Shown here piece by piece: positions 5,431 through 55,637 of a stretch of 64,000 nt of DNA. A program made the position numbers and the translations under genes. The DNA is from an uncultured bacterium (lineage in GTDB: Bacteria > Hinthialibacterota > Hinthialibacteria > Hinthialibacterales > Hinthialibacteraceae). Within the stretch, counting starts at the first letter, position 1. The number at the start of each line of letters is the position of its first letter. The notes under the pieces were generated by a model, which worked only from the letters and a program-made list of their open reading frames with translations, was not told the origin of the DNA and ran no database searches. Location: NCBI GenBank assembly GCA_964419335.1, contig CAYQOX010000004.1, forward strand, positions 31,310-95,309, given 5' to 3'.

Positions 5431-6630
5431 GTGATAAAACTATACTGGAAAAATGGAAAGCCAATGACAAAATACGAATGGATCAAGTCTCTCTTAGCGG
5501 GAGAAAAAAATCTGCCCATCCCTCAACACTGGATGTCGTTTTTCAATGGCGAGGTCGCCCGTCGTCTCACTCCTCCAGAATGTCACTATTACCCAATGTG
5601 GATCTATGACGTGCCTGAGTATTATGATATGTCACCCATGGGGCCAGAGGCATTGGAACGCATGATCAAGTTCAATCAGTACACCGGGCGTTGTTTCGCT
5701 TGCCTAGGTAAAGGAGCCAACATCTGCTTCGGCCATGGCGGGCCTGGAGAGTTCTTTTCCCGCCTTATCCATAAGGATGAAAACGAATTGGTCGTGGAAT
5801 ACGAAACCGGGGTGCGTGCTCAGGTGCGATTCGATCCTCATTTCTATCACCATTTCGATCACCCAGTGCACACGATGGAAGATCTGGAAAAATTAGAACT
5901 GCCCGATCCGGCCAATCCCGCGCGTTACGAAGGTTTTGCCGAGGATGTGAAATACTTAAAAGCCCGAGGCGAGTATGTCATTGCTTCCCTGAACGGCTTT
6001 TTCTCCGGCATTCATTATTTTCTGCGCGAATATACCGAAACCCTTATGGGATTGATCACCGAGCCGGAACTAACCAAAGCCATCACGAAAAAATTGGGTG
6101 AATGGAATCTCACCGCCGCGCGTAAAATGATTGAAGCGGGCGCCGATTGTATCGACCTTTGCGATGATCTCGGGACAAAAAAATCGTTACTAATGAACCC
6201 CGAAATATACCGTGAAGTCTTCAAACCATGGCATAAACGCCTATGTGAGGAAGTGCATGAATTAGGCGGTGATGTGCATCTGCATACTCATGGAGCAGTA
6301 GGAAAAATCCTGCCCGATTTGGCAGAATGCGGCTTTGATTTCATTAATCCCTTCGATCCCGAGGAAAAACATGATATTCCCCAACTCATGCGCGAGTATT
6401 CCCAACATTTTATCATCGTAGGTGGCTTCCCCACCAGTTTTTGGGAATGGGATGCGCAACAACAGAATGATTATCTCAAATACATGGGCGATTTAGGCAA
6501 GGAATACGGGCGATTGATCTTCATGGATTCCGGCGGGGTTCCCGATAATGTTACGAAAGAAGACTTCGATCGTATCAATCGTGTCAGCCGCGAAGTTCGG
6601 GGGATCCCCGAAAGTGGGAATTTTGTGTAA
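5431..6630 (+). CDS. Uroporphyrinogen-decarboxylase-fold protein (MtaA/CmuA-like methyltransferase family)
   Basis: It has URO-D-like architecture and motifs (DLCDDLG, FINPFDP). The internal Met at 5464 is an alternative start. Confidence 0.5.
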   Translation: MIKLYWKNGKPMTKYEWIKSLLAGEKNLPIPQHWMSFFNGEVARRLTPPECHYYPMWIYDVPEYYDMSPMGPEALERMIKFNQYTGRCFACLGKGANICFGHGGPGEFFSRLIHKDENELVVEYETGVRAQVRFDPHFYHHFDHPVHTMEDLEKLELPDPANPARYEGFAEDVKYLKARGEYVIASLNGFFSGIHYFLREYTETLMGLITEPELTKAITKKLGEWNLTAARKMIEAGADCIDLCDDLGTKKSLLMNPEIYREVFKPWHKRLCEEVHELGGDVHLHTHGAVGKILPDLAECGFDFINPFDPEEKHDIPQLMREYSQHFIIVGGFPTSFWEWDAQQQNDYLKYMGDLGKEYGRLIFMDSGGVPDNVTKEDFDRINRVSREVRGIPESGNFV

Positions 6631-6703: not shown

Positions 6704-7951
6704 TCAGAGTTTCGGCAATTCCCAAGGATCACGCCGGGGACGATCGAGGTAGGTATTCGCATCGTCATCGTCGATAAAGACTTCTTTCTTCGGATCCCAC
6801 GTTAATTTGCGTGCTGTCCAGCGCACGAGATTCATAAAGTGGCACATGGTCGTAGAACGATGGGCTTCTTCGACATCGGCGATAGGCCGTTCACGGCTTT
6901 TCACGCAATCAATGAAGTTTTGCTGATGGTTTCGGCTTACTTCCAATTTTTCTTTGAGATCCAACTCATCAAGATCAATCTCGGGATCGGTCTTATAGCG
7001 GCCGCGATCAATCAAAATCGTCCCATCTTCACATTCAAAGAAGCCGCCGCCAGCGGGTCCCTTATTATCCATCCTTACCTCGACCCCATCTTCATAGCGC
7101 ATATGAACAGGACGGTATAAATCTCGATAGCTGCCTTCTGTCCAAATTTCCACCGGTCCCGATTTTACCGTCCCCAAGGCCCATTGCATGATATCGATTC
7201 CATGGGCACCCCAGCCGGTCACTTCACCGCCAGAATAGGGCATAATGGATATCCAGCCGGGTTTTGCCCGTGGTGTGTAAATGTCTGGATGATAACCGCG
7301 CTTTTCGGCCGGTCCCAACCACATATCCCAATCCAAGCCTTCAGGAACCGGATACGAGGAGAACGGCTGATCCCAAGGACTTTCGTAATTGGCTCCATGA
7401 ACCACTTTCACTTTGCCAAACACTTCATTACGCACCAATTCGCAGCCTATCCGGCAATTGGTCATGGAACGCTGCTGGCTCCCGCACTGAACGATACGCT
7501 CATTTTTACGTGCGGCTTTCACCATCGCGCGGCCTTCAGCAATGGTCAGGGTCATGGGTTTTTCCACGTAAACATCTTTGCCCGCCATGCAAGCATGGAT
7601 GGAATTAAGCGCATGCCAATGGTCTGGTGTAGCCACAATGACCGCGTCTACATCCTTGTCTTCCAGCAGATCGCGATAATCCTGATATGTCTTCCAATCC
7701 TTCCCCGCAGCGACTTTGTCCATGCGTTTTTTGTTCACATCGCTAATAGCAACGAACTGCGAACCTTGGGTGCGGCTGAAATCCCCCATCAGCTGCTGTC
7801 CTCTGCGTCCCGGGCCGATCACACCGAGTCCTACGGTATCATTTGCCCCCCAAACTTTCTCCGACACCAACATCGGCGCAGTCACCGCGAGTGCGCTGCC
7901 ACTCCCACGTTTGATGAAGGAACGTCGTGTGATAAAACTTTTGTTCGTCAT
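6704..7951 (-). CDS. Gfo/Idh/MocA family oxidoreductase with Tat signal peptide
   Basis: It has a twin-arginine leader (TRRSFIKRGSGSALAV). It has the GFO Rossmann and C-terminal domains. Confidence 0.8.
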   Translation of the reverse strand: MTNKSFITRRSFIKRGSGSALAVTAPMLVSEKVWGANDTVGLGVIGPGRRGQQLMGDFSRTQGSQFVAISDVNKKRMDKVAAGKDWKTYQDYRDLLEDKDVDAVIVATPDHWHALNSIHACMAGKDVYVEKPMTLTIAEGRAMVKAARKNERIVQCGSQQRSMTNCRIGCELVRNEVFGKVKVVHGANYESPWDQPFSSYPVPEGLDWDMWLGPAEKRGYHPDIYTPRAKPGWISIMPYSGGEVTGWGAHGIDIMQWALGTVKSGPVEIWTEGSYRDLYRPVHMRYEDGVEVRMDNKGPAGGGFFECEDGTILIDRGRYKTDPEIDLDELDLKEKLEVSRNHQQNFIDCVKSRERPIADVEEAHRSTTMCHFMNLVRWTARKLTWDPKKEVFIDDDDANTYLDRPRRDPWELPKL

Positions 7952-7973
7952 AACACTTTCCTCCTAGCTATGA

Positions 7974-9044
7974 TTATGCTTTTTCATTTCCGATGCGTTG
8001 TAAGACGGCGCGCATATAACCCAGCGCATAAGCCTTCCCCGCGTGCCATGGCGCGTCGCATGTCATTTGGGGTGTATGATCAGGAATCAACACACCGTCA
8101 AATTGGTTTTGATGTAAGATCTTCATTATCCGATACACATCCACATCGCCTTCGTCGATGAATACCTCATGATATCTGGGTACTTTCCCTTTTACATTCC
8201 GTAAATGGACATAGGCGATCGCATTCTGGCGGCTATATTGATCGGTATATTCGTAAATATCACCCTCTTGCATCTCTTGCAGCGTTCCCACGCAGTACTC
8301 AAGCGTATTCGAAGGGCTAGGGACGAGATCCAAAAGTTTTTGATACATCCCAGGTTGATACACAAGCCGGGCGTGCCCACGCAACGTGGGCATGGGTGGA
8401 TCATCGGGATGGGCCGCCAATTTGACTCCTGCTTCTTCTGCGACGGGAATCACTTCTTGAAGGAACCTCTGCAGACGATTCCATAATTGCTCGTGGGTTA
8501 CCGGATTATGATCACCTTCCTCGGCTTGGGGATCATAAACCATGTTCCAAATATGCCCCTTGGGAATCGGAGTTTCCTTTGGGCCTTCCTCACCAAGAAA
8601 AGCCACGGAAGTGGCCTTTCCCCGCGCCCAAGGACCATTAACATGCCCCCAGACACCAGCGATACTAAAGTTATAGCCCATAATGGGGATCCCTACTTTT
8701 CCTAAGCGGCGAATCATGGTTTTCACGTCTTCGATTTGTTGATCTCGTTTTGGGCCATCGAGCAAAATATCATACCAATGCGAAGGGTCGAAATTCTCGA
8801 TCGCCTCCAGTTGCAATCCTTCCTCATTGATCGAATGTTTTAGATCCCTGAGTTCTTCTTCGTTCCAGAGTTGACCTTGATTTGCAGAGATCCCCCAATT
8901 ACGCTTCTCATCCGTGCCATGCAAAAGTTCACCGGAAAAATAATTAACCAAATGGGCTACGATATGAGTACATCCCGCTTGTCGTGCAAACTGAAAGTTT
9001 TCCTTCGTCAGCATATGACGGTATAAACCTAAACCAATCTTCAT
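7974..9044 (-). CDS. uxuA: Mannonate dehydratase
   Basis: It has strong UxuA signatures: IPVAEEAGVKLAAHPDDPP, GDVDVYRIMKIL and IPDHTPQM. Confidence 0.75.
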   Translation of the reverse strand: MKIGLGLYRHMLTKENFQFARQAGCTHIVAHLVNYFSGELLHGTDEKRNWGISANQGQLWNEEELRDLKHSINEEGLQLEAIENFDPSHWYDILLDGPKRDQQIEDVKTMIRRLGKVGIPIMGYNFSIAGVWGHVNGPWARGKATSVAFLGEEGPKETPIPKGHIWNMVYDPQAEEGDHNPVTHEQLWNRLQRFLQEVIPVAEEAGVKLAAHPDDPPMPTLRGHARLVYQPGMYQKLLDLVPSPSNTLEYCVGTLQEMQEGDIYEYTDQYSRQNAIAYVHLRNVKGKVPRYHEVFIDEGDVDVYRIMKILHQNQFDGVLIPDHTPQMTCDAPWHAGKAYALGYMRAVLQRIGNEKA

Positions 9045-9059
9045 AAAACGCGCCTTTCT

Positions 9060-9821
9060 CTAAAAACCAATGCTCGTACCGCCATCCACAGGAAGAACCA
9101 CACCGGTAATATACTTCGCCGCGGGAGAGCATAAATACACGGAAGCATACCCAATGTCCTCTGCTTCGCCCATTCGATTCATGGGCGTACGGCTAAGTAC
9201 TTTGTTCAATCGTTCAGGATCATTCGAAAAGGCTTTCCGGGTGATATCACTCGTGATAAATCCTGGAGCGATCGCATTGACACGAACCCCATGAGGCGAA
9301 AACTCGGTTGCGAGAGTCCGCACCAGGCCTAGATAAGCGGACTTCGCCGCAGAATAAGCGACCGTCAGGGGAAGGCCAAAGAGTGAGGCCATAGAAGCCG
9401 TAAAAAGAATCGAGCCATGTTTCTGTTCCAGCATGAAAGGAACGAGGGTTTTGGTTAACGCAAACGCCCCCATGACATGCGTATTTAATACATTCGTAAA
9501 CTCTTCGTAAGTCGTCTCGATCGCCGCTTTTTTTAGGTGAATGCCAGCATTATTAACTAAGATCGTAGGCATCCCCATGCGCTCTTTGATCCGCTGAAGC
9601 AGTTCAGGCACTTGATCTAACTGAGTCACATCGAACACTTCATAAGTTGCCCGTGACCCCATAGTGTCTACCGCTTCTTGCAAGACACTTTCACGACGTC
9701 CCACAAGTATGACGTTCGCCCCCGCTTGGGCCATACATTGCGCCGTCGCCAATCCTAAACCACTTCCCCCTCCAGTGATTAATGCGACTTCATTTTCTAG
9801 AGAAAAAGGTTGTGGAATCAT
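9060..9821 (-). CDS. SDR-family oxidoreductase, KduD/IdnO-like (2-deoxy-D-gluconate 3-dehydrogenase / gluconate 5-dehydrogenase type)
   Basis: It has a TGGGSGLG cofactor motif, NNAG, and a YSAAK catalytic Tyr/Lys. The N-terminus ([12 protein letters not shown]) resembles KduD (FSLEGKVAVVTG). Confidence 0.65.
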
Positions 9822-9850
9822 ACGCCTCCTTTATTAAACAAATCTCGTTT

Positions 9851-10984
9851 TCATCCTTGTGAAACTACGTTTTTGATTTGATTTACATTATACGGGGGGA
9901 TGCCGGTAGACTGCCTTTCCATGAGTTGGGCCCCCAGCATGATGGTTTCTTGAATTTTTTTTGGTTCCTCCAACCGTCTAAGCAATAACTGCAAGGCGCG
10001 TATCCCCATCTCTTGTTTTTCTACGTGCACAGTGGTCAAACTGGGGCGGCAATTCTCGGCTATTGAAACATTATCAATCCCGCAGACACTAACCTCGTCA
10101 GGGATACGATAGCCTTGGTCTTGCAACGCATTCATTGCACCAATCGCAATAAGATCACTCCCACCGACAACGGCTGTAAACTCCATCTTTTGCTCCAATG
10201 CCTTTTGGATCATCTCCCTGCCGCAAGAAGAATTTTTCCCGCCTTTTAGAATGGATACCTCACCCGCAAATTCTTTGTAAAAACCACGCAAGCGATCTTC
10301 ATGCGCGATATTGTCCGCTTCACCGCTAAGATAAAGCGTTTGTTTATGTCCTAGTTTCACTAAATGACGTGCCAGTAAACGCCCAAATTGGCTTTGTTCC
10401 GAGGTCACCGTATCGAAAGGATAATCATCATTGCGATAATTGAGAAAAACGCACGGCATATAAATCTGCATCATATAATCTAAAAATGCCTTGGGCATTT
10501 GTCCCGCGATAATCAACCCCGAAAGTTGGCGTAACAAGGCTTGCTGTTCCAAAGGGCATTGTTCAGATTGAAGATCCTCTCCCTTGATGAAGGCTAAATG
10601 CACATGCTGTTTTTGCGCCTCGTGGGTTACTCCCATCAGGACTTGAGAATAAAACGGATCCTCATCGATGTAGCGTTCCGGCCGCAGGGCAAAACCGATC
10701 GAGCGATCGATACTTTTCCGCATCGATTCCTTGGCGACAATGAAAGTCCCTCGCCCCCGCACCGCTTCCACCAATCCTAATTGGCTCAGCTGTTCGATCG
10801 ATTTCCTCACAGTCATTCGACTCAATCCCGTGATTTGGCAAATTTCATTCTCTGTGGGAAGAAATTCACCTATTTGCACTTCCTCGCTCTGGATAATATT
10901 CACCATCTGATCACAAAGTTGGCGATAGGTGGGAATCGGGGAATATCGATCTATTTGTATTGAAAACTTTGATAAATCTTTCAA
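9851..10984 (-). CDS. Transcriptional regulator with a GntR-type wHTH fused to a LacI/periplasmic-binding-protein-like sugar-binding domain (AraR-like architecture)
   Basis: The N-terminus has a GntR HTH (LPTENEICQITGLSRMTVRKSIEQL). The C-terminal 280 aa have a PBP type-1 fold pattern. Confidence 0.65.
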   Translation of the reverse strand: MKDLSKFSIQIDRYSPIPTYRQLCDQMVNIIQSEEVQIGEFLPTENEICQITGLSRMTVRKSIEQLSQLGLVEAVRGRGTFIVAKESMRKSIDRSIGFALRPERYIDEDPFYSQVLMGVTHEAQKQHVHLAFIKGEDLQSEQCPLEQQALLRQLSGLIIAGQMPKAFLDYMMQIYMPCVFLNYRNDDYPFDTVTSEQSQFGRLLARHLVKLGHKQTLYLSGEADNIAHEDRLRGFYKEFAGEVSILKGGKNSSCGREMIQKALEQKMEFTAVVGGSDLIAIGAMNALQDQGYRIPDEVSVCGIDNVSIAENCRPSLTTVHVEKQEMGIRALQLLLRRLEEPKKIQETIMLGAQLMERQSTGIPPYNVNQIKNVVSQG

Positions 10985-11188: not shown

Positions 11189-11293
11189 CGAAGAGATATG
11201 ACCTTTTGTATATACATTTATTGGATAATGATCTTGTCATCGATGTTCATTCAGTCTCTCTGAATGAAAAATTATAAACAGGAGGAAGAGTGT

Positions 11294-13123
11294 ATGAATA
11301 GGAAATGGATAGGGTACATATTCTTAGGAATGGTCCTTGCGTTGCCTGGAGCAGCTCAAGACATTGAAATGTTCTTTGGGTCAGACGTACTTGAAGAAAC
11401 AACCGATGAGTACGGCAATACGTATGTGACCACACCTGTGGATGCGGTTATTCCCCTGCCTGAGGGTTTTGGAGAGTCACCGGAACTGGAACTGGAAGGA
11501 CTCATAGTTGATCCCGCCTATATTTATGAGACCTACACCGATGATGCAGGAAATTCCTACACCACAGTAGCGCAGGATGATTCCCTTTCACCAGAAGAAG
11601 TCTTCGTTGAAGGGGGACCCGACGATGATAACTTATGGAATCTTCGTGGCGCCGCTATGCCGGATATGGGAGTTCTAGAATCGTACGCACCCTCAGAGAC
11701 CGAAGACGCACCCCCAGTGCAAACCACAGTCACCATGGGGGAAGCGGGGACCTACAATGTTTATCTATGGTATGGTGATATCGGCGCAGCGAATCCTGAT
11801 GATGATGCCGATAATCCCACCCCCATCAATGCAGGCCTCGAAGGCGAAGATATGCAAACCTTTTTACAGGCCGATGGGGTATTGATCACGGATGAATACG
11901 GTTGGAATGTTCTCGAAGTCCAGTTAGGAACCGTGACCCTCGAAGCGGGCGAAAGTTTTAGCGTTATTATTGACGATCACTTTGGAGAGGGTGCGCGTTC
12001 CGCCTACCTCGGTCTTCGAATCAGCACTGGCCCCATTTATGATCCCCCGGAGCCTCCATCCTATGATTTCCATCAAGATGATAAGTGGTTAAGTTACACA
12101 GTCGCGGGAGAACGAACACTCTTGCTTTCCAATGGTCCAGGCGCCGATGAAGACGCTCCTGAACTGACGACCGAAATCACTTTAGGACATGCGGGAACCT
12201 ACGAGGTGATTTTCCACTTCATGGATTCCAATAATTTTCCTGATCAAGGTTGGATTCGGGCGGCTCTCGATGATAACGACCCCCAAGATTACGGTGCGGG
12301 ACATCCTGACGCTGTACGTGCCACCGGCGGAACCTCCCCAGCCTATCCTTGGATTGACGGGACCTTTACCGGAGGTATGTTCTGGTACACAGCGGTTATG
12401 GGTACTGTAGAAGCCGAAGCAGGGGATACCATCACCCTGTCGATTGATGACGCTCAAGGCACTGCCGCTGAGCCTTACATCGCTTCGGTCTTTGAAGGCA
12501 TCACCCTTCGTGTACTTGAAGGGGGTCCTCCCATCACAGAAATACGAGTTTCACCAGGCGAATTTGAATGGTTCACCGACAAGAACGGGAATCAATATCG
12601 TACCTGGGCGATGGATGAAGACGCCTATCCGAATTTAGAGGATTGGCTCACCGACCATGCGAGCAGCAGCAGCGATAATAAATGGAATATTCGTGATGAC
12701 CTTGGAATCTTTGGTCCCATCATCGAATCCTTCCCGGGCGGCGGAACCGAAGATGCACCGCCTTTACGCACTACGGTAATTCCTTCTGAAGGGGGAACCT
12801 ATGATGTCTACTATTACTTCGGTGATACCGGTGCATCCGATCCAGAAGAAAACTTGGAACTACCTCATCCCACTTGGGTGTATTTCGAAGGAGAGGATCC
12901 GCAAACCCTCGTGGCCGGGGATGGGGAGTTCGTCGGCTTACACGGATATAACACGTATGAAATTTATCTAGGCCAGATTACGGTTGAAGCCGGAGAAGAG
13001 GTCAATGTGATCATCGACGATGGATTCGAACATGAACTCTCGGTGGATGGTTCACGTTCGGTGTATTGCGGTTTGCTGCTGGAAACGGCTGAGACTTCTG
13101 TCGATGATTGGGAACTTTTCTAA
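11294..13123 (+). CDS. Secreted, highly acidic protein with three internal ~150-aa tandem repeats; function unknown
   Basis: The ATG at 11294 is preceded by GGAGGA at 11281-11286. The signal peptide is MNRKWIGYIFLGMVLALPGAAQ. The repeats carry WN[LI]R, [DE]DAPP..TT[VI]..G.AGTY.V....GD and [VL]EAG[ED]..[VL]IIDD.F...S.Y.GL blocks. The ORF track starts the ORF at 11264. Confidence 0.6.
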   Translation: MNRKWIGYIFLGMVLALPGAAQDIEMFFGSDVLEETTDEYGNTYVTTPVDAVIPLPEGFGESPELELEGLIVDPAYIYETYTDDAGNSYTTVAQDDSLSPEEVFVEGGPDDDNLWNLRGAAMPDMGVLESYAPSETEDAPPVQTTVTMGEAGTYNVYLWYGDIGAANPDDDADNPTPINAGLEGEDMQTFLQADGVLITDEYGWNVLEVQLGTVTLEAGESFSVIIDDHFGEGARSAYLGLRISTGPIYDPPEPPSYDFHQDDKWLSYTVAGERTLLLSNGPGADEDAPELTTEITLGHAGTYEVIFHFMDSNNFPDQGWIRAALDDNDPQDYGAGHPDAVRATGGTSPAYPWIDGTFTGGMFWYTAVMGTVEAEAGDTITLSIDDAQGTAAEPYIASVFEGITLRVLEGGPPITEIRVSPGEFEWFTDKNGNQYRTWAMDEDAYPNLEDWLTDHASSSSDNKWNIRDDLGIFGPIIESFPGGGTEDAPPLRTTVIPSEGGTYDVYYYFGDTGASDPEENLELPHPTWVYFEGEDPQTLVAGDGEFVGLHGYNTYEIYLGQITVEAGEEVNVIIDDGFEHELSVDGSRSVYCGLLLETAETSVDDWELF

Positions 13124-13258: not shown

Positions 13259-14503
13259 CTATTTCTTTACTTGAAAAATCCCGACAAGGCCATGGCTGTT
13301 TCCATTTCCCCGTTGCAGCGCCGCTTCTAAATCCCGCAGCAAGAAACCCAATTGCATCTCTAATACATCCGCCCGCACATCATCGGTGTAAAAACATTCC
13401 AGATGCTCTACCATCCCACGAAAGCGATCTACTGTTTTTTGGGCAATCTCGGGAGGATTCTCAAGATTGATTTCTGGAGTGCGATTTTCTCCGTAAATCA
13501 TCATCGCGCATTGAGCAATAACATAATTCCACGCACCGAAAGCGTGCTGGAAAAATGCATTTTCCCGCTGTAACTGCTCATGGGGATGATAATCAATCAG
13601 CAACTCGGTTAAATCGGTTCGTTGGCTACGTTCGAACAACGAATTGACCGTTTGCCGCATAATCTTTGAATGCTTATTATAATCGCCAGTATCCATGTGC
13701 CTGCCGATAAAGACAGAGCGATCAAAAAAGCCTTGTACATCTAAAGTATTACCGGTTTGGCGACACACCTCTTCGATGACATATTTCTTTACTTCGTCCT
13801 GGGTCACGAGACGCAAATGCAAGGGGCTCAGTTCTACCTTGTCTCGTTCCTCGGGTGGATAAATGTAGGAAATGTAGTATTCCATCCATTGTTCTTGGGA
13901 TAGATCATCATCCCAAAGTTCCTGCCACTCGTAGGAATAACGCCCTAGCCAATCACCCAGGATAACAGAACCATCCTCGGCATGATCCATGATATCATTC
14001 AATAAACGTATAGTTTCATCACGATGGAGATGAGATAAGGTTCCATATGATGCGAAGTAGATGTCAAAAGGCTCAGAATCGATCGCGTTGGGGAGCCCTT
14101 GCGAAAGATTGCCTTGGAAAAACTTCATTTTGGGGTCATGTCCCCAACGTTCGGCGTTTTGGTTTAAAAGGTCCTGATTGAGGTCAACACCGGTGTAATT
14201 CTCTACATCTTCGTAAGAAATCACGCGATTACGATTGCATTGCAATTCGTAAGCCTCCGCCGGTATTTCCATGAACATTTCAAATCCATCCCCGCTGCCA
14301 CAACCTAAATCAAGAATCCTCAACCCCCGTCCTTGCTTACGCGCATGTTGCATGCGCTGAGCGACATAGGGTTTCATATATTGACGCGTAAGAGCGTCTT
14401 CCCAATACAAACGAACGTGATCATATTTGGAATAATACGATTTCCCACGGTCATATTTCCCACTGGTGACCGCCTGGGAATACGCATCATTGGATTGACT
14501 CAT
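13259..14503 (-). CDS. Class I SAM-dependent methyltransferase
   Basis: It has SAM-binding motif I (RILDLGCGSGDG). It lies 63 nt downstream of the corrinoid-protein gene. Confidence 0.65.
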   Translation of the reverse strand: MSQSNDAYSQAVTSGKYDRGKSYYSKYDHVRLYWEDALTRQYMKPYVAQRMQHARKQGRGLRILDLGCGSGDGFEMFMEIPAEAYELQCNRNRVISYEDVENYTGVDLNQDLLNQNAERWGHDPKMKFFQGNLSQGLPNAIDSEPFDIYFASYGTLSHLHRDETIRLLNDIMDHAEDGSVILGDWLGRYSYEWQELWDDDLSQEQWMEYYISYIYPPEERDKVELSPLHLRLVTQDEVKKYVIEEVCRQTGNTLDVQGFFDRSVFIGRHMDTGDYNKHSKIMRQTVNSLFERSQRTDLTELLIDYHPHEQLQRENAFFQHAFGAWNYVIAQCAMMIYGENRTPEINLENPPEIAQKTVDRFRGMVEHLECFYTDDVRADVLEMQLGFLLRDLEAALQRGNGNSHGLVGIFQVKK

Positions 14504-14566
14504 AGGGAGATTTTCCTTTTTTTAGTTGTATACTCAATTTTTGGAGCGTATGGAACCCATCGAGCG

Positions 14567-15241
14567 TTAGCTGGCTTTCTCCAATTTCTCGATGGTGTCG
14601 AAGGCATCTTCACAATACATATTGGCGCCAATTTTTTCGGCATATTCCGGTGATACCGGCGCGCCGCCAACGAGAACGACAACCGAGTCACGCAAGCCCT
14701 GATCATTCAATAAATCAATGACTTCTTTCATATGCCCCATGGTGGTCGTCAACAGAGCAGAAAGGCCGAGATATTTGGGTTGGATTTCTTTTACTTTTTC
14801 TACAATCTTATCCGCTTTCACCCCGGTGCCCATATCAACAACTTCGAAACCCGCACCCCGCAGCATGGTAGCCACGATATTCTTTCCAATATCATGCAAG
14901 TCCCCTTCGACGGTGGCTAGAAGAAATTTCCCCTTGCTGTGAATATCCTTCCCTTTAAGGTGCGGTTCTAAAATCCCCATGGCTTCCCCGACACATTCTG
15001 CCGCGGCGAGCATATCAGGAATGAGGTAATCACCATTTTCATACCGGCGTCCCACTTCTTCCATACCGGGATTGAGGGCTTCGTTAAGAATCTCATTCGG
15101 TGGAATGTTCTGATTAATAGCCTCTTCGACTAACTCCATGACCCCCGGCTGTCCTTCCATATCGCCGTCAAAACCTTCGTCTTCTTGATCGATCCGTCCT
15201 AGAATTACGTTTTCTTTTATTTTTTTGAGGAGATCGTTCAT
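14567..15241 (-). CDS. Corrinoid (cobalamin-binding) protein, MtgC/MttC-like
   Basis: It has a B12-binding-2 cap plus a B12-binding domain with DxHxxG (DLHDIG), SALLTTT and GG motifs. Confidence 0.85.
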   Translation of the reverse strand: MNDLLKKIKENVILGRIDQEDEGFDGDMEGQPGVMELVEEAINQNIPPNEILNEALNPGMEEVGRRYENGDYLIPDMLAAAECVGEAMGILEPHLKGKDIHSKGKFLLATVEGDLHDIGKNIVATMLRGAGFEVVDMGTGVKADKIVEKVKEIQPKYLGLSALLTTTMGHMKEVIDLLNDQGLRDSVVVLVGGAPVSPEYAEKIGANMYCEDAFDTIEKLEKAS

Positions 15242-15321
15242 GGTTCTAATCCTTATCCTTATATCCAGTATGTTAATTGTTTACAATTTTCATTTCGTCC
15301 GTTAAAGAGCGTACATGAGGC

Positions 15322-16851
15322 TCATATTTGAAAAGACTCGAAGGGCAACAATCCTTCGATCTTATTATATACCGATTCAACAATCGATTCATGCGGTAGA
15401 TTCGCCGGTTCTTGCCAATACTGTTGTAAGCGATCATACGCCTTTGACAAAACCAGATCCTCTTTCTCGGGGGTCTCAAAAGCATAGGGAGCGGAAACAA
15501 GTCCTTCTTTCCGGGCTTTTCGAATGTAGCGAGCAAAAAGTTGGGTTGAGGAGGCCGTAACCTGACGCACTTCCTCGACCGCTTTTTCCGCTTCCTTCAT
15601 GCCAAACACCGGCTGGCGGATAATCTGGCGCACAATGCCAATATGCTCATCATCTAGCACCGCTTGCAAGGGAGAAAACACATTCGTTTTATCCAGCAAG
15701 CCAAAAGCATAGTGGATATATTGTGCCCCGGCTTGGGCTACCGCCAATTGCGAAAAGACTTTTTCGATTGTCGCCTGCATTCCTGGAACCTTAGCATCCC
15801 CCACGCCCGCGGTGGAATAGCAAGGAACTCCATAGTATTCAGCCATCTGGATGCAATCTTGGTTATAATGAACGAACTCGGGAGCGCCATAAAGATCATG
15901 CAGATTATCCAATCGTGCACGCACCGGTACCGCTCCATAGAGCACCGGAGCCCCGGGATTCACCAATTGCGCCAAAGTGATGCCCGCTAGAATCTCAGCG
16001 TTGATCATTGCGACCATCCCTTCTTCACGGACAGGTGCGGTAGAGCCTCCCTGGGGAGAACTGGAAAGCACCACGGGAGCGCCTTTTTTGGCGATGGCGA
16101 TCATTTTTTCCGTAGTATCGTCCACCATCTGCAAGGGACTTTTGATGATGCAGGTAATGAAGGAAACCAGCGGGCTTTGTATAAAGTTTTCTCGGCCGCC
16201 CGAGATCAATTCAGCAAGCTGTAAAACCGTATCCAGATTTTTTACATCGGTTAATCCCGCCATTACATGCTTTTGCATATAAAGCAGAGAGGCGAAAAAG
16301 ACATTTACATCTTTATTACTTTCATTGATGCCTTCATCCTGAATGTTGACATTACGAATGAAGAAATCAACGTTATCTAAGCGGTTACAAAGTTTTGCTG
16401 ATTTACACAAATTCGCGATATTTCCCCGATTTTCGACATACACGGGAAGTTTACGTACATCGTTAGAGTTTTTGCGATTAACAAATTCTTCCATCTCCGT
16501 ATCGAGGAAGATGTTGGTCTCCGAACCGGTACCAAAATAAACCAAAGGCTCGTTGGCGTTGAGTTTGAGCGTATTCGACTCGTCTCGCGCGCCAAGCAAT
16601 ACTTCATCCGGCGCTTGTCGCACGGCATCATCAACCACATGAGCAGGAATCCGTACTTTCCAGGAATCCTCGCCGGCTGGTTCAACAGAACAGCCGTTTT
16701 GTTGAAACACCTCGACGGCCTTTTTGTTAAAGCAATGCACCCCGGGTTCGCTTAGCATTGCCAGCGAAGCTTTATGAATCGCCTGGACCTGCTCATTCGA
16801 CAACCGTCTAAGCGGTTGAACCAAGGTACCTTTTCTATAGTTTTGTTCCAT
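15322..16851 (-). CDS. MttB-superfamily (trimethylamine methyltransferase family) substrate:corrinoid methyltransferase, non-pyrrolysine type
   Basis: It is 509 aa with MttB-like conserved blocks (GAPVLYGAVP, YYGVPCYSTAGVGDAK). The reading frame is uninterrupted, with no in-frame amber codon. Confidence 0.75.
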   Translation of the reverse strand: MEQNYRKGTLVQPLRRLSNEQVQAIHKASLAMLSEPGVHCFNKKAVEVFQQNGCSVEPAGEDSWKVRIPAHVVDDAVRQAPDEVLLGARDESNTLKLNANEPLVYFGTGSETNIFLDTEMEEFVNRKNSNDVRKLPVYVENRGNIANLCKSAKLCNRLDNVDFFIRNVNIQDEGINESNKDVNVFFASLLYMQKHVMAGLTDVKNLDTVLQLAELISGGRENFIQSPLVSFITCIIKSPLQMVDDTTEKMIAIAKKGAPVVLSSSPQGGSTAPVREEGMVAMINAEILAGITLAQLVNPGAPVLYGAVPVRARLDNLHDLYGAPEFVHYNQDCIQMAEYYGVPCYSTAGVGDAKVPGMQATIEKVFSQLAVAQAGAQYIHYAFGLLDKTNVFSPLQAVLDDEHIGIVRQIIRQPVFGMKEAEKAVEEVRQVTASSTQLFARYIRKARKEGLVSAPYAFETPEKEDLVLSKAYDRLQQYWQEPANLPHESIVESVYNKIEGLLPFESFQI

Positions 16852-16873
16852 TGTTCACTTCTCCGATTGCTAT

Positions 16874-17686
16874 TTACTCTTCAAAAACCCCTTTGCGCGA
16901 CCCCCGGCCAAAACGTCGGCAAAAACGATCCTTGCCCGCGATGAGGGGACCTAACAAAACCGCCTGTTGAATTTCCTTACGGGTAGGATCACAGAAGGCA
17001 GAATCCAATCCACAGGCTAGCGCAGCGATCAAAAAAGCACTATTAATCTTCTGCCGGTGAGGTAATCCATAAGAAAGATTTGATAATCCCACCGTGGTTT
17101 TCACCTTCGGGAATTCTTGCTTAATCGCCTGCACGGTATCAATCACGATGCGTGCGTATTTATGATTCGAAGACAGCGGCATCGTCAAGGCATCAAAGTA
17201 AAGATTCTCTTCCAGAACGCCCATATCGAGTGCTTTTTGTCGAATCGCACGGCAATGTTCTATCCGGTCTTCTTTGGTTTCTGGCATCGATTCTCCATCC
17301 ATCAAGAGAGCAACCACCGGGGCTTTATGCTCTACAGCGATAGGTAAGAGAGAATTCAATATCGAATCCACATTCTTGACCGAGTTAAGAATCCATTCTC
17401 TGCGCCCGGCCAAATGTTGGGCACCTGTGCGAATCACATCCACCGAGGCCGAATCCAGAATCAGCGGTTTGTCGGTCGCGTCTAGGGCAATATCGATAAG
17501 CCAACACATATCCTCCGCTTCTTTTTCGATGTCACCATCTGGATTCCCGGCATTTAAATCGATGTAATGCGCGCCGGCTTCATTCTGATCGTTAATCTGT
17601 TTGCGAATAATTTCTTCATTCTTCTCCGCAATCGCATTGCGGATTGATTTTCGTGTAGCATTGATTTTTTCGCCAAATACAATCAT
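16874..17686 (-). CDS. Pterin-binding methyl-THF:corrinoid methyltransferase (MetH pterin-binding domain / MtgA-like)
   Basis: It aligns to the MetH pterin-binding domain (GEKINATRKSI ~ GERTNVTGSAKF; AGAHYIDLNAG ~ GAQIIDINMD; ILDSASVDVI ~ MIDSSKWDVI). Confidence 0.8.
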   Translation of the reverse strand: MIVFGEKINATRKSIRNAIAEKNEEIIRKQINDQNEAGAHYIDLNAGNPDGDIEKEAEDMCWLIDIALDATDKPLILDSASVDVIRTGAQHLAGRREWILNSVKNVDSILNSLLPIAVEHKAPVVALLMDGESMPETKEDRIEHCRAIRQKALDMGVLEENLYFDALTMPLSSNHKYARIVIDTVQAIKQEFPKVKTTVGLSNLSYGLPHRQKINSAFLIAALACGLDSAFCDPTRKEIQQAVLLGPLIAGKDRFCRRFGRGSRKGVFEE

Positions 17687-17748
17687 GGTTCCTCTATTTT
17701 TATTACTTTTGAACTCGTTTTGCTTGGTAAGATCAATTTAGATTGGTA

Positions 17749-19188
17749 CTATCGAACTTCAGGAAATCGATCTTTAATTTTTTGAGAAAGAAGATCATCG
17801 ATATAGCATGTTTCATTATCTTCTAGAACCTGCTTAACCTGAGAATGGGCTCGATCTTGGGTTGTTAAGGAACCTTGTTGCTCCCATAATTCACGCTTAT
17901 CGCGATTGGTTAATGTGGGAACATAATGTTCCTTCTTGAAGTGGCGCCGTGTGTGTCTAACCGCCACAAAATTCCCTCCCGGGCCTACCTGTTTAATAGT
18001 ATCAAAGGCCAATGTATTTTCATCGACAACAATGCCTTTGACTGCCCGCTTCACCATACCAATAATCTCATCGTCAATGACTAACTTTTCCTTGCTGACA
18101 GTCATGGCAAATTCCATAAGTCCGGCAGCATCATGAATAAAATCACCGCCGCTCAATCCCACCAGCATATTGTTCACGGTTGATTCATAGCCGCATTGGG
18201 CATCCAAGGTTTTGGAATCACTGATCCCTGCGGTGGAATAATACGGAAAGCCATAGTAACGAGCCAACTGTCCCGTAGCGGCATTGATCATTCCACTTTC
18301 TACCGGTCCTCCGAGGTAGCCAACATCGTGCATATTCACAGTGGTAGACACACTCCCATATAAGACTGGAGCCCCTGGATTAGCGAGTTGGGTTACCATG
18401 ATATTAATTAATCCATCACAGTTCTGAATCACCAGGGTTCCTGCCAAGGTGACGGGAGAGGTCGCACCGCAAAGCGGCTCTACCGGCACCGCTGCTGGGA
18501 TCCCCTTGCGTGCCATTTGGATCATGAATTGCCCATATTTACTATCCAACCGTAAAGGGCTAATGCTGCAGGCGATCATCGATATGATCGGCCGCTGGCG
18601 CAAGGCTTCCTCTCCCCCAGCAACCATTTCCGCCATTTCAATGGTCTTGAAAATACCTTCGGAGGTATAAACACCTCCCATAATGGGCTTTTTTGTATAT
18701 TTCATGCCCGCGTAAAACCGGTTCACATCGACGTCTTCTACCGGAATCTCATTGGGATACGTCGGCAGAAGCATAAAATCGATATTATTAAGCCGGTCAG
18801 CCAAACGAATCACATCCATCAAGTCTTGCAGATTGGCTTCACGTTTCTCTTGGGTTTCGTGATCTAGAATAAATAACGCGGTTCCACCGGTACCAAAATA
18901 AGAATGACCGGCACCCAAAGTAATGTTGTATCGATCTTCTCGCCCATAAAGAGTAATTTGATTAGGAGCAGAAGAAATAATTTTTTTAACTAAGTCTTCT
19001 TTGATTCGAACAATACGGTTTTCATCATCGGTTTGGGCACCCGCTTTTTTGAAGAGTTGAAACGCTTCTTCATCTTGAACTTCAAAGCCGACCTCTTCAA
19101 ATACGCGCATGCTGGTTTCATGAATCTGCCGTAAATCATCTTGACTCAGAGGTTCGTACTGAAAACGTTGCTTTGTATGATGTTGCAT
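17749..19188 (-). CDS. MttB-superfamily methyltransferase, second paralog (non-pyrrolysine)
   Basis: It is 479 aa and collinear with the first paralog (GAPVLYGSVS, YYGFPYYSTAGISDSK). The reading frame is uninterrupted. Confidence 0.75.
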   Translation of the reverse strand: MQHHTKQRFQYEPLSQDDLRQIHETSMRVFEEVGFEVQDEEAFQLFKKAGAQTDDENRIVRIKEDLVKKIISSAPNQITLYGREDRYNITLGAGHSYFGTGGTALFILDHETQEKREANLQDLMDVIRLADRLNNIDFMLLPTYPNEIPVEDVDVNRFYAGMKYTKKPIMGGVYTSEGIFKTIEMAEMVAGGEEALRQRPIISMIACSISPLRLDSKYGQFMIQMARKGIPAAVPVEPLCGATSPVTLAGTLVIQNCDGLINIMVTQLANPGAPVLYGSVSTTVNMHDVGYLGGPVESGMINAATGQLARYYGFPYYSTAGISDSKTLDAQCGYESTVNNMLVGLSGGDFIHDAAGLMEFAMTVSKEKLVIDDEIIGMVKRAVKGIVVDENTLAFDTIKQVGPGGNFVAVRHTRRHFKKEHYVPTLTNRDKRELWEQQGSLTTQDRAHSQVKQVLEDNETCYIDDLLSQKIKDRFPEVR

Positions 19189-19202
19189 GAAATTCCTTTC
19201 AC

Positions 19203-19874
19203 TTAAACTCTTCTATGAGGGCAATTTTTGCGCTTACAATTACGACAAAGATTGCGTAGTTCCATTTCTGAATTGGCATTACATATCCCAAAAACTCCTG
19301 AAACAGATTTCGTAGGAGACATCAAATAGGTATCCGAGAGTTTGACCCCAATTTTTTCATGCGGAATGAGACCAAAGAGTTTCTTTTGTTCACGTATAGA
19401 CCAATCACAATACCCAGGACTGTAACGATAGGTCGTTGTTCGATCTTCGGGGAGTTTTTTACGGATATATTCCTGCATGTACTCGGCCGCTTCTTCAGCG
19501 GCCGCTGAAGCTACCAAATTCAATAAATACCCATAGTGTGGCCGACGTTTCATCGCTTTTTTGACTAAGTCATCGATTTCTTTTCCCACGGTAGTCAGAA
19601 ACACGGCCACCTTATCACAATCATTAAACATCTCCTTCAGATTTTTGCTGCTAAAATTCAAATCCTTTGATGATTTCTTATCTTTTTGGCTCCGAAGAGG
19701 AATAATACGGTAAATGCCTTGAGGCTTGATATGGGAAAGCACTTCCCGAATTGCTTTTTTCAATTGAGTTTTCGTTCTTTGAGAAACCTTACCATCTTCA
19801 CCCTCTAAAATTGTGTCCAACAAATGTTTTTCGGATAATTTAACTGGAATAGAGTCGATTTCTTCAACAGACAT
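19203..19874 (-). CDS. Stand-alone homolog of the methionine synthase (MetH) reactivation/AdoMet-binding domain; putative corrinoid reactivation protein
   Basis: RYSPGYCDWSIREQKKLFGLI and LMSPTKSVSGVFG resemble the MetH activation-domain blocks FGYPACPDHSEK...WEL and MWPGASVSGWYF. The C-terminus is Cys-rich. Confidence 0.55.
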   Translation of the reverse strand: MSVEEIDSIPVKLSEKHLLDTILEGEDGKVSQRTKTQLKKAIREVLSHIKPQGIYRIIPLRSQKDKKSSKDLNFSSKNLKEMFNDCDKVAVFLTTVGKEIDDLVKKAMKRRPHYGYLLNLVASAAAEEAAEYMQEYIRKKLPEDRTTTYRYSPGYCDWSIREQKKLFGLIPHEKIGVKLSDTYLMSPTKSVSGVFGICNANSEMELRNLCRNCKRKNCPHRRV

Positions 19875-20043
19875 AGCATACCATCTCCTTTAAAATTTTT
19901 TTAAAGCTTTCCTTCGTGGTATCACTCGTTATGCAAGAAGAGAAGAGAATTTTTTTTACTGTGAAGGTTTTCAAATATACGCCCTTGCGTTTGCGTATGT
20001 TCCCTCACAAACCACTATAAAACAAAATTGTGTTGAAATTCCC

Positions 20044-20078
20044 TACCGGAGAAATAATCTTCTATTATTTCTCCGGTA
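20044..20078. promoter_or_regulatory. Perfect 14-bp inverted repeat with a 5-nt spacer in the 5' region of the corrinoid methyltransferase operon
   Basis: ACCGGAGAAATAAT-CTTCT-ATTATTTCTCCGGT (15 bp with the flanking T/A). It lies about 170 nt upstream of the first gene start at 19874. Confidence 0.4.
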
Positions 20079-20304
20079 TAAAACACCTTCATAAACAACA
20101 TTCATGGAATCATTTTCATCGCTGGATGATATTATTATAATATTATCACGATGAAAGTATAGGGGTAAAAACAGTTTTGTGTGGGTTTGAACAATAAAAA
20201 TCCAATTATCGCACTGTTTTCATTAGACTTATACATATTTCGGGAATTTTAAAATAATATAGAATCCTATATGTATTTTTGATAATTGTATTCTTATTAT
20301 ACCA

Positions 20305-20344
20305 CAAGAGATAGCAAAAGCCCGTGAAGAGTGACCTTCACGGG
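20305..20344 (-). terminator. Rho-independent terminator downstream of the HEAT-repeat gene
   Basis: On the minus strand there is a CCCGTGAAG-GTCACT-CTTCACGGG hairpin followed by CTTTTGCTATCT. Confidence 0.5.
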
Positions 20345-20478
20345 CTGGTTTCATTCAGTGGTGTGACTCACCGGGCCTCGCTAGGGCCTAATCGCAAGAT
20401 AGCGAGCTTGGAAAGTATTGGAGGAGAGGAACATAATCATCTAAATAAATATTCCTTATTATGATTATTATGAATGCT

Positions 20479-54602: not shown

Positions 54603-55637
54603 TCAAGGATGAGAGTTTTCCCGGCTGGCTTCCATGAAGGCCTTGATATTCTCGATAGGGGTTTCTTGCGGTAAGTCACATCCTGTACTGAGGATAAAAT
54701 TAGGATAAGGACGCATTGCCTTTAGTAATTCCTTGACTTCGTGCTTCACTTCATGCGGTTCGCCCCGTAGCAAGGTTTGAGTGGGGTTGATATTTCCAAT
54801 CAAAGCCACAGAGACGGGAATCGATTCTGCTACTTTTTTCATGTCTACGCCGACCTCGCTGGAATCAAGGCTGATTCCATGCACATTGGATTCGACCATG
54901 AGTTTGACGAGGTGCATGGTATTACCACACGTATGATAAATGCTGCCAACCCCGCGTTCAGTATTACGTTCAACAATGCGGCGAATGTAGTGGGAGGAAA
55001 ACTGGTTGAACTGCTGAGGACCAAGCATGACAGCCGTAGGTTCAAGCACACAGATTATATCCACGCCTGCGGAGACCAAGAGGTCATTGTATTGCATGAT
55101 GACTTTTGTGGTGAACTCACACAGGTGCGCAAGATCATCGGGATGAAGGATAGTCGCCATAGCGGCATCATCCGCCCCCATAATCAGTGCAGCCAGCGTG
55201 TAAGGGCCAGTGATGTAGGCTCCTTTTAGAATCATCCGCGGTAATTCACGTACCATCAACTTGGCGGTTTCAACATAACCCAACACCCGCGCATCAGCCG
55301 CGATGTTGATCCGCTTCATACGCTCGATTTCACCAAAATCAAATAGATCCTTGGGCACCGTAGCCGTATCGCGACGAGGAAAGACGGTATAACGTCCCAA
55401 AGCGTTGGCTTCAATGGATAAATCCATTAATGGAAAAACCAAATCAGGATGAAAAGTTTCGACATTGGTTTTGATGACTCGAAAGTGTTCGAGGTAGTTT
55501 TGTTGAGCCAATTTAATTTCTGTATCAGCAATATTGACTCCAGGAAATCCGAGTAATGGGGCAACCAATCGTTCATGACGTTCGTACTTAACATAGGCGC
55601 GATCCGCTAAAGTCCATTGTCTCATGTTGTCTCCCAT
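54603..55637 (-). CDS. MtaA/CmuA-like methyltransferase (uroporphyrinogen decarboxylase fold)
   Basis: It is 344 aa with a URO-D family pattern. Its stop is 1 nt from the stop of the convergent gene. Confidence 0.6.
   Translation of the reverse strand: MGDNMRQWTLADRAYVKYERHERLVAPLLGFPGVNIADTEIKLAQQNYLEHFRVIKTNVETFHPDLVFPLMDLSIEANALGRYTVFPRRDTATVPKDLFDFGEIERMKRINIAADARVLGYVETAKLMVRELPRMILKGAYITGPYTLAALIMGADDAAMATILHPDDLAHLCEFTTKVIMQYNDLLVSAGVDIICVLEPTAVMLGPQQFNQFSSHYIRRIVERNTERGVGSIYHTCGNTMHLVKLMVESNVHGISLDSSEVGVDMKKVAESIPVSVALIGNINPTQTLLRGEPHEVKHEVKELLKAMRPYPNFILSTGCDLPQETPIENIKAFMEASRENSHP

Follow-up and report, generated by a model that had tools for sequence, protein, structure and literature searches.

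A 64,000-nt stretch of DNA (the window) carries on its minus strand six closely spaced genes that, judged from their products, provide every part of a tetrahydrofolate (THF)-linked cobalamin methyl relay: two substrate methyltransferases (MT1s) of the MttB superfamily, a corrinoid carrier, a THF-side methyltransferase (MT2) and a repair protein of the type that uses S-adenosylmethionine (SAM). The sixth gene encodes an orphan SAM methyltransferase. We tentatively read the set as one operon whose products act on the N-methyl groups of a single osmolyte-like amine in the demethylating direction, a reading to which we give slightly less than an even chance. Precedent within the MttB family is what would favor demethylation as the direction of net flux. 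The features are listed here in operon order.

20319..20346, minus strand: intrinsic-terminator-like hairpin, a 12-bp stem (7 GC pairs) with TTTTGCTATCT after it
19875..20318, minus strand: leader/promoter region, ~440 bp, AT-rich, with two inverted repeats
19203..19874, minus strand: ActD, predicted stand-alone MetH-type SAM-binding reactivation protein, TM0269-like (Met_synt_B12)
17749..19188, minus strand: MttB1, nonpyrrolysine MttB-superfamily methyltransferase, clade 1 (MTTB)
16874..17686, minus strand: Pterin, predicted methyl-corrinoid:THF methyltransferase, an MtgA/MeTr-like MT2 (Pterin_bind)
15322..16851, minus strand: MttB2, divergent nonpyrrolysine MttB-superfamily methyltransferase, clade 2 (MTTB)
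14567..15241, minus strand: CoP, predicted base-off/His-on corrinoid carrier protein (B12-binding and B12-binding_2)
13259..14503, minus strand: SAM_MT, orphan class I SAM-dependent methyltransferase, 414 amino acids (Methyltransf_25)

The six open reading frames (ORFs) run in the same direction from 19874 to 13259, exactly where an earlier note on this DNA had placed them, and encode proteins of 223, 479, 270, 509, 224 and 414 amino acids in gene order. The gaps between them measure 14, 62, 22, 80 and 63 bp, in keeping with the tight spacing which that note described. Each ORF has an ATG start codon with a Shine-Dalgarno-like motif upstream of it, and no internal stop or in-frame TAG was found in any of the six frames. 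All six proteins gave Pfam matches above the gathering score, so that every domain assigned in the earlier note proved right; NCBIfam agreed at the level of class, yet all six proteins fell below the cutoffs of every named orthologous group.

The hairpin at 20346-20319 looks like the terminator of the upstream HEAT-repeat gene and would set the 5' boundary of the operon. Within the leader, a palindrome at 20044-20078 has perfect 15-nt arms (TACCGGAGAAATAAT and ATTATTTCTCCGGTA) around a 5-nt spacer, and a second, AT-rich, 15-nt palindrome lies at 20127-20148; both may be operator sites. The leader, palindromes included, is not conserved in the three closest related loci. A riboswitch or other leader RNA was considered and rejected, as neither the window nor the 440-bp leader gave an Rfam match even at E values of up to 1. 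Because terminator and leader bound six closely spaced genes, the six look like a single transcription unit, and because the same genes recur in the same order on many unrelated contigs, their arrangement is not the product of chance.

MttB paralogs and their relay partners

MttB1 and MttB2 belong to the MttB superfamily (PF06253) by sequence, and MttB2 does so by its predicted fold as well. Against the Pfam MTTB profile (gathering score, 25), MttB1 scored 378.5 bits and MttB2 scored 195 bits, the latter over profile positions 29-421 of 500. In phmmer comparisons, the E values were 1.7e-87 (MttB1) and 9.3e-36 (MttB2) with MtgB (2QNE) and 8.2e-78 and 8.2e-41, respectively, with Methanosarcina barkeri MttB (7XCL), and both paralogs aligned essentially end to end with these solved chains (residues 10-465 of MttB1 on MtgB). 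MttB1 is 34% identical to MtgB, 37% identical to M. barkeri MttB and 28% identical to MttB2, which in turn shows 23% identity to MtgB and 26.5% to M. barkeri MttB. An AlphaFold2 (AF2) model of MttB2 (pLDDT, 89.1) matched 7xcl_A with Foldseek TM scores of 0.82/0.85 over 511 columns, and on this model MttB2 truly has the MttB fold, the C-terminal extension being part of it.

Both MttB genes are uninterrupted and nonpyrrolysine, as the earlier note held. Besides the lack of in-frame TAG codons, the pyrrolysine column of M. barkeri MttB is occupied by Ile in MttB1 and Val in MttB2 (Leu in MtgB), and the TIGR02369 scores of 454.5 (MttB1) and 264.5 (MttB2) both fall under the cutoff of 525. A missed amber codon was rejected on the strength of the six clean frames and of the full length of both proteins relative to their solved homologues. 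From the context of the adjoining corrinoid protein, we predict that both enzymes transfer a methyl group between a substrate and the corrinoid cobalt. The MttB-superfamily members covered in the literature cited here are substrate:corrinoid demethylases that place the methyl group onto Co(I) (PMC13080624, PMC8604678).

Mutagenesis and a structure with bound ligand have defined the mode in which MtgB binds glycine betaine (Picking et al., 2026; PMC13080624). Cation-pi contacts come from Y97 and F356, the carboxylate is bound by R312 and H348, and activity is abolished by R312L and by H348E. The Arg equivalent to R312 is stated to be conserved in MtcB, MtpB, MthB and MtyB, and our comparison with these four enzymes rests on that published R312/H348 conservation statement (PMC13080624). 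We aligned 244 sequences, namely, both window paralogs, the best 120 matches of each, MtgB and M. barkeri MttB. At the columns of Y97, R312, H348, F356 and pyrrolysine, MtgB reads Y/R/H/F/L, clade 1 (MttB1) reads G/Y/D/A/I in 120-121 of 121 sequences and clade 2 (MttB2) reads S/Y/Y/T/V in 111-121 of 121. Every one of the 121 sequences in each clade has Tyr at the R312 column. A second alignment put T at the Y97 column, a residue that is still nonaromatic. In each paralog all four MtgB contacts are replaced, and both clades lack the conserved Arg of the carboxylate-betaine group. Tyr at the R312 position together with an FGTG motif is the state found in pyrrolysine MttB.

By these sequence patterns, MttB1 and MttB2 define two separate, internally conserved clades, whose substrates would be bound unlike the characterized betaines, with no carboxylate anchor of the glycine betaine kind. 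The four contact positions, which read G/Y/D/A and S/Y/Y/T, thus lend no support to the suggestion in the earlier note that a betaine is taken first and its demethylated product next. MttB1 has 7035 homologues at an E value of ≤1e-10 among 8000 candidates scored, the best at 79% identity, and MttB2 has 1942 at ≤1e-20. In the dimers of MttB and MtgB, each active site is completed by the C-terminal arm of the other subunit (PMC13080624), and on this ground MttB1 and MttB2 could form a heterodimer.

The carrier and the THF-side enzyme could each be placed in a class. CoP matched the Pfam families B12-binding (94.9 bits) and B12-binding_2 (61.7 bits), and its translation contains the DxHxxG (GDLHDIG), SxL and GG motifs of base-off/His-on cobalamin binding. 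It scored 199.5 with TIGR02370 against a cutoff of 215.3 and 179 and 162 with the two MtgC models against cutoffs of 370 and 310; by sequence it fits the class of methyltransferase-cognate corrinoid proteins and no named orthologous group. Pterin scored 71.7 bits with Pterin_bind and 242.7 bits with PRK07535, just under the NCBIfam cutoff of 259; it also matched MeTr/AcsE-type models and the folate region of MetH (E value, 3.7e-31). These matches point to the MeTr/MtgA class of methyl-corrinoid:THF methyltransferases. With substrate methyltransferases, corrinoid protein and pterin methyltransferase all present, the MtgABC-like architecture put forward in the earlier note stands.

ActD matched Met_synt_B12 (PF02965) at 57.3 bits (E value, 2e-15). 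With a profile built from three cassette proteins (those of the window and of related loci L001 and L003), the best match in the PDB was 1J6R, TM0269 of Thermotoga maritima (E value, 5e-11; residues 5-198 on 17-206). The SAM-binding RxxxGY motif, which reads RYSPGY in the window protein, has an SPGY core that is invariant in 24/24 cassette ActD homologues and an Arg that is present in 20/24. On these grounds ActD would be a reactivation protein of the PF02965/TM0269 type that reductively methylates Co(II) with SAM. It also has four extra cysteines, C156 in SPGYCDW and C210, C213 and C218 in a C-terminal CxxCxxxxCxxRR. This four-Cys motif is invariant in the 24 cassette homologues, both of its parts are missing from TM0269, and it is a candidate metal or Fe-S site beside the SAM pocket. 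No RamA-type Fe-S/ASKHA activase was found among the annotated neighbors of the window cassette and related loci or among the scanned window ORFs. Two further statements of the earlier note, that a stand-alone MetH reactivation protein is encoded at 19203-19874 and that the activator is of the MetH type rather than the RamA type, are thereby upheld.

The SAM methyltransferase and the wider cassette

SAM_MT matched Methyltransf_25 at 34.8 bits and has an intact motif I (RILDLGCGSGDG). The Rossmann fold, the motif I core LDLGCGSG and the acidic post-I residue identify it as a class I SAM-dependent methyltransferase. Its AF2 model (pLDDT, 89.1) has a Rossmann core and a helical C-terminal extension, and a fold search returned only generic methyltransferases. 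At an E value of ≤1e-3, SAM_MT has 1281 homologues. An exhaustive comparison of the SAM_MT profile with 1.84 billion cluster representatives gave 395 members at ≤1e-3 and 145 at 1e-30, a sharply bounded family for a class I methyltransferase profile. Nine arginines and many aromatic residues are invariant in it.

We gathered ~100 loci, mapped them by tblastn and clustered their ORFs, leaving 86 nonredundant loci. The cassette recurs at ~90 loci from uncultured anaerobes, with its gene order kept. The best tblastn score decided between the labels MttB1 and MttB2, and likewise between AsnB_a and AsnB_b. Many of the contigs are incomplete, and the gene frequencies given here are lower bounds. Where at least 1 kb of upstream sequence was available, CoP or MttB2 lay directly upstream of SAM_MT in 67 of 68 loci. 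SAM_MT is thus the most tightly linked gene of the cassette and diagnostic of it; the earlier note had treated it as a mere sixth passenger, a view that neither this linkage nor the sharp family boundary allows.

Two gene orders recur. Type I, which includes the window, reads [MarR]-ActD-MttB1-Pterin-MttB2-CoP-SAM_MT-AsnB-[OpuA ATP-binding cassette (ABC) importer], AsnB being a homologue of asparagine synthase. Type II reads [Aldedh-like, GCS2 ligase]-MttB1-[DUF362+Fer4]-MttB2-SAM_MT-OpuA-[MarC]-AsnB, with no corrinoid, pterin or ActD gene nearby. Where 7 kb or more lay upstream of SAM_MT (30 loci), MttB2 was present in 28, MttB1 in 27, CoP in 24, Pterin in 21, ActD in 19 and MarR in 9. Downstream, where at least 2 kb was available (53 loci), an AsnB homologue followed within 2.5 kb in 36/53, an OpuA-type transporter was found in 17/53 and MetV/MetF (MTHFR) was found in 3/53. 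The window is one of only 5/53 loci with none of these downstream, and tblastn over its full 64 kb turned up no gene for AsnB, OpuA or MTHFR. MetV/MetF genes follow the cassette in L017/L020, as fragments in L013, and in L021 the first gene alone was seen.

The AsnB homologues are of two kinds. The first scored 578.7 bits with PRK09431 (cutoff, 499), begins with MCGI and by these features is a bona fide glutamine-dependent asparagine synthase. In the second (354.5 bits) the nucleophilic Cys is replaced, the N terminus being MSG or, in some type II loci, MAG. The binding proteins of the transporters in the sister loci are OsmF/OpuAC-like.

SAM_MT also occurs outside the relay. It is fused to AsnB in two proteins, P0392 (934 amino acids), which keeps the Cys nucleophile (MCGI), and P0400 (901 amino acids), the record of which begins downstream of that position; a third protein, P0425, is a Usp-SAM_MT fusion. 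The P0392 operon contains an ABC ATPase, a permease-OpuAC fusion and a major facilitator superfamily (MFS) gene, with MarR and an Na/H exchanger nearby, and has no MttB or corrinoid gene within 10 kb. At L102, which encodes a distant member of the SAM_MT family, no MttB or CoP gene lies upstream, the downstream side being beyond the end of the contig. The SAM_MT-AsnB-OpuA set can therefore function autonomously.

A variant with a third MttB was found in two loci. In Dethiobacter alkaliphilus AHT1 (ACJM01000005.1; L099 9001-18224), the order is MttB1-Pterin-MttB2-CoP-MttB3-AsnB-AP_endonuc_2-CN_hydrolase, and L101, from Marispirochaeta, has the same order from MttB1 to AsnB, with AsnB in fragments and MTHFR fragments after it. 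The AsnB N terminus, which was read in Dethiobacter only, is of the Cys-to-Ser type. At both loci MttB3 occupies the slot of SAM_MT, and L099 has neither SAM_MT nor ActD. MttB3 is 24-32% identical to the other MttBs, has the signature T/C/S/V/V at the columns listed above and on this basis defines a further clade; no MttB3-type gene was present in any SAM_MT-bearing locus examined. D. alkaliphilus is a soda-lake isolate, whose genome paper lists betaine transporters and no genes for osmolyte synthesis (PMC5609068). Because it is in culture, the role of the MttBs is directly testable there.

The named homologues come from Aminicenantes, Thermodesulfobacteriota/Deltaproteobacteria, Planctomycetota, Spirochaetota, Thermodesulfovibrionales and one Hodarchaeota metagenome-assembled genome, and one related locus is labeled Verrucomicrobiota. 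Many loci presumably stem from saline or hypersaline sediments, judging by their sample names. The earlier note had placed the cassette in a genome like those of the Planctomycetota-Verrucomicrobiota-Chlamydiota (PVC) group; its occurrence in Aminicenantes, Thermodesulfobacteriota and others shows that it is widespread beyond that group. The gene content behind the "PVC-like" label was the Gfo/Idh/MocA and DUF1080 genes of the window, and with the Verrucomicrobiota-labeled relative it makes a PVC origin of the window plausible.

Several related loci carry further genes of note. In type II loci, an Aldedh-like protein (~424 amino acids) and a GCS2 carboxylate-amine ligase (~452 amino acids) precede MttB1 in 5-6 cases (e.g., L027 1730-4343; L046 1499-4142). 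DUF362 and 4Fe-4S ferredoxin-domain proteins are encoded in the interval from MttB1 to MttB2 or immediately ahead of MttB2 (L046 6389-7627; L010 35-1039), where ActD is absent, and could be an alternative redox partner there. At L008, an 840-amino-acid KamA/lysine-2,3-aminomutase-like radical SAM protein (7651-10173) follows an MttB2-CoP-SAM_MT-OpuA block. In methanogens, synthesis of the osmolyte N-epsilon-acetyl-beta-lysine begins with lysine-2,3-aminomutase, and the gene would hint at an osmoadaptation island. Methyltransferase islands also occur: a second Pterin-CoP-MttB-MttB cluster stands a few kilobases downstream of the cassette at L041 (7379-11997) and L045 (16191-20342). L013 (9689-12111; Aminicenantes CP070627.1), with a 98-amino-acid B12-binding fragment, an intact SAM_MT, DUF5981 (MetV-like) and a 142-amino-acid MTHFR fragment, looks like a decayed cassette.

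Elsewhere in the window, a 619-amino-acid ORF at 11264-13123 (+) converges with the operon end and has no Pfam match; two other large ORFs, at 47774-50008 (-; 744 amino acids) and 12-1286 (+; 424 amino acids), have none either. ORFs of the URO-D family, which spans HemE and MtaA/MtbA-type methylcobamide methyltransferases, lie at 5431-6630 (+; 79 bits) and 54603-55637 (-; 189 bits), and a DUF362 protein is encoded at 52093-53154 (-).

In the literature, we found no paper on the cassette, its two MttB clades, the SAM_MT family or the Cys-rich ActD and nothing on MttB together with asparagine synthase, on asparagine or aspartate betaines or on Dethiobacter osmolytes. The mlp gene clusters (PMC10418091) proved to concern the UroD family and to be unrelated to the cassette.

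Direction and substrate of the relay

If the relay demethylates, the two MttBs would take one cationic amine at differing states of methylation or in closely related forms. The methyl group would pass to Co(I) of the shared CoP and from there, through Pterin, to THF, giving methyl-THF. When Co(I) is oxidized to Co(II), ActD would reductively methylate it with SAM, the electrons possibly arriving via the four-Cys site. SAM_MT would methylate the same compound family, so that the operon would control both sides of the methylation state. The amine is probably osmolyte-like, in view of the link to AsnB chemistry and OpuA-type transport, and in sister loci would also be handled by the asparagine synthase homologues and OpuA-type ABC uptake. 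The link to osmolytes comes from the OpuA/OsmF-like, betaine-type importers in or beside the operon at the 17 loci counted above. To our knowledge, every characterized member of the MttB superfamily is a substrate:corrinoid demethylase, and both paralogs are homologous to the solved demethylases MtgB and MttB. The use of two MttB-family MT1s with one MT2 is not new: strain DCMF has been proposed to carry out stepwise demethylation in this way (PMC9768040).

A number of observations weigh against demethylation. If an irreversible SAM methyltransferase is cotranscribed with enzymes that demethylate the same compound, a futile cycle follows unless the two activities are under separate control. 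The presence of MttB3 in the SAM_MT slot in D. alkaliphilus and Marispirochaeta suggests that the two have equivalent, methylating chemistry, and the AsnB-SAM_MT fusion operon, which lacks MttB and includes an OpuA-type transporter, apparently has an autonomous biosynthetic role. Both MttBs lack the aromatic and basic substrate contacts of MtgB, and both clades are known from sequence alone. ATP-driven importers and ATP-consuming AsnB/GCS2 ligases would make poor economics for pure methyl catabolism. Finally, by standard free energies, moving a methyl group from a tertiary or secondary amine to THF is uphill.

Run in the opposite direction, the same parts would make up a biosynthetic pathway, a rival to be taken seriously, although on the unlikely side. 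Methyl-THF would charge CoP through Pterin, MttB1 and MttB2 would N-methylate an amine in two steps, and SAM_MT or MttB3 would add the last methyl group. The amine would probably be asparagine derived and made by the AsnB of the sister loci, SAM_MT would carry out the quaternization, thermodynamically the hardest of the methylations, and OpuA would recapture or import the solute. This direction alone would explain why an irreversible methylating enzyme is cotranscribed with MttBs, SAM_MT, which can only methylate, being inside the operon in 67 of the 68 loci. It would also explain the replacement of SAM_MT in situ by MttB3 in two loci, the two being mutually exclusive across the loci examined; the fusion of SAM_MT to a Cys-type, real asparagine synthase (another protein fuses it to Usp); the ATP-driven importers and ligases; and a repair system that is MetH-style and SAM dependent rather than a RamA ATPase. 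The fusion operon points the same way, with its OpuA-type transporter, its MarR and Na/H exchanger neighbors and its lack of MttB, as do the AsnB homologues after SAM_MT in 36 of the 53 loci, one type of which is a bona fide asparagine synthase, the GCS2 ligase and Aldedh-like genes of type II loci and the lysine-2,3-aminomutase-like gene adjoining L008. So do active sites that resemble that of pyrrolysine MttB, with its nonquaternary amine substrate, and not those of the betaine enzymes, the presumed saline and hypersaline origin of many loci, and the soda-lake habitat of D. alkaliphilus, for which betaine transporters and no osmolyte synthesis genes are described.

Thermodynamics bears on this point as well. 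By free energies from methanogenesis with methanol, methylamines and methyl-tetrahydromethanopterin (methyl-H4MPT), passing a methyl group from methyl-THF to an amine is worth roughly -20 kJ/mol, with quaternization about neutral; such values would suit a route of two steps on cobalamin and one with SAM. Set against all this, we know of no MttB-family enzyme or corrinoid protein system that N-methylates amines physiologically. Neither asparagine betaine nor a similar microbial solute appears in the literature searched, and in literature on the reversibility of MttB-family half-reactions the MtyB paper had nothing on point. Neither AsnB nor OpuA is encoded in the 64 kb of the window, and the MttB3 architecture comes from two loci only.

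Spelled out, the version in the earlier note would make one MttB an MtgB-like glycine betaine enzyme, have the other take dimethylglycine or another classical carboxylate betaine such as proline betaine, carnitine or gamma-butyrobetaine and leave SAM_MT as an unrelated passenger. We think this improbable. The architecture does resemble MtgABC, the sister loci encode OsmF-like binding proteins of the glycine betaine type, such a scheme was proposed for strain DCMF (PMC9768040) and metagenomic studies routinely label genes of this kind mtgB (PMC6081815); however, 4/4 validated MtgB contacts are replaced, and R312L and H348E each abolish activity in MtgB, while MttB1 has Asp at the H348 position (PMC13080624). 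Only 34% and 23% of the paralogs' residues match those of MtgB, CoP scores far below both MtgC models and SAM_MT is too tightly linked to be a passenger. A target within the machinery has a similarly small chance of accounting for SAM_MT, which would then be a SAM:corrinoid-protein methylase or a protein methyltransferase modifying MttB2 or CoP. Its position directly after CoP or MttB2 in 67/68 loci would suit that role, and the nine invariant arginines and many invariant aromatics suggest a large or anionic partner, but its fusion partners are AsnB and Usp and never a corrinoid protein or MttB, the family also occurs with no MttB or CoP nearby (P0392; the upstream side of L102), ActD already provides SAM-dependent repair in type I loci and the fold matches of SAM_MT are generic. 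Very improbable, and rejected here, is a split methionine synthase in which methyl-THF would serve CoP and then homocysteine, the MttBs replacing the homocysteine-binding module. Three of the four MetH modules (folate, cobalamin and reactivation) are indeed present as separate proteins, and a split MetH shares subunits with glycine betaine demethylation in Ruegeria and Phaeobacter (PMC12478193). Neither the cassette nor its conserved neighbors, however, encode an S-methyl_trans/homocysteine-binding domain or a MetE-like core synthase, the MttBs by homology lack a Zn-thiolate-type site and the cassette is linked to osmolyte-type transporters and not to methionine genes.

The distinction matters because nonpyrrolysine MttB genes are among the commonest markers of "methylotrophy" in anoxic metagenomes. 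Those found in metagenomes are routinely annotated as glycine betaine demethylases (PMC6081815), and here are two large, paired MttB clades without the betaine-binding residues that travel with SAM_MT, AsnB homologues and ATP-driven osmolyte transporters. If the demethylating direction is correct, an overlooked methylated nitrogen compound would be involved, one relevant to methylamine and to methane precursors in saline sediments. If the cassette is biosynthetic, it would be the first cobalamin-dependent amine methylation pathway, a categorically new chemistry for the MttB superfamily; it would yield an N-methylated compatible solute not known before and made with little use of SAM, by an energy-saving, folate-paid osmolyte route for anaerobes of saline sediments and soda lakes.

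Comparison with known systems

In overall design the cassette follows a known three-component plan, to which it adds new MT1 clades, a new repair partner and a SAM methyltransferase integrated into the set. In logic, its nearest counterpart is MtgB/MtgC/MtgA of Desulfitobacterium hafniense (2QNE, 9YCE), where adjoining genes likewise encode an MttB-family MT1 that is a nonpyrrolysine TIM barrel, a His-on corrinoid protein and a pterin MT2. The cassette differs in having two MT1s of other clades in which the glycine betaine contacts are replaced, in its repair by a TM0269-like SAM protein instead of a RamA-type ATPase and in the presence of SAM_MT in the operon. The closest system in structure and active site is pyrrolysine MttB/MttC of M. 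barkeri (7XCL-7XCN), the best structural match of MttB2, although the cassette is without pyrrolysine, has THF and not coenzyme M as the acceptor and stands in a bacterial context.

The glycine betaine gene cluster of "Ca. Formimonas warabiya" DCMF has two MttB-family (MtgB-like) MT1s that share one MT2 (MtgA) but differs in its BCCT transporters and two corrinoid proteins (PMC9768040); neither a SAM methyltransferase nor an AsnB homologue or TM0269-like protein has been described in that cluster. In Eubacterium limosum, several MttB-family MT1s (MtcB, MtpB, MtyB and MthB) use one corrinoid protein (MtqC) and one THF methyltransferase (MtqA). Those MT1s, unlike MttB1 and MttB2, are reported to keep the R312-equivalent Arg (PMC13080624), one methyl group is removed per quaternary amine and repair is by the ATP-dependent RamQ. 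The split MetH/MtgBCD system of Ruegeria pomeroyi and Phaeobacter inhibens also has MetH-like modules as separate proteins that are shared with MttB-family enzymes, and its pterin methyltransferase is proposed to be bidirectional (PMC12478193); these organisms are aerobic Alphaproteobacteria and use RamA and DUF1638, a CmuA-like corrinoid protein and a homocysteine module.

For ActD, the closest relative is TM0269 of T. maritima (1J6R), a stand-alone Met_synt_B12-type protein of ~215 amino acids with the R-x-S-P-G-Y motif. The partner of TM0269 is MetH, whereas that of ActD would be an MttB-type relay, and ActD adds the Cys motifs. The cassette would thus represent a second partner for SAM-dependent cobalt repair of the TM0269 type, with a candidate metal site built into the repair protein itself.

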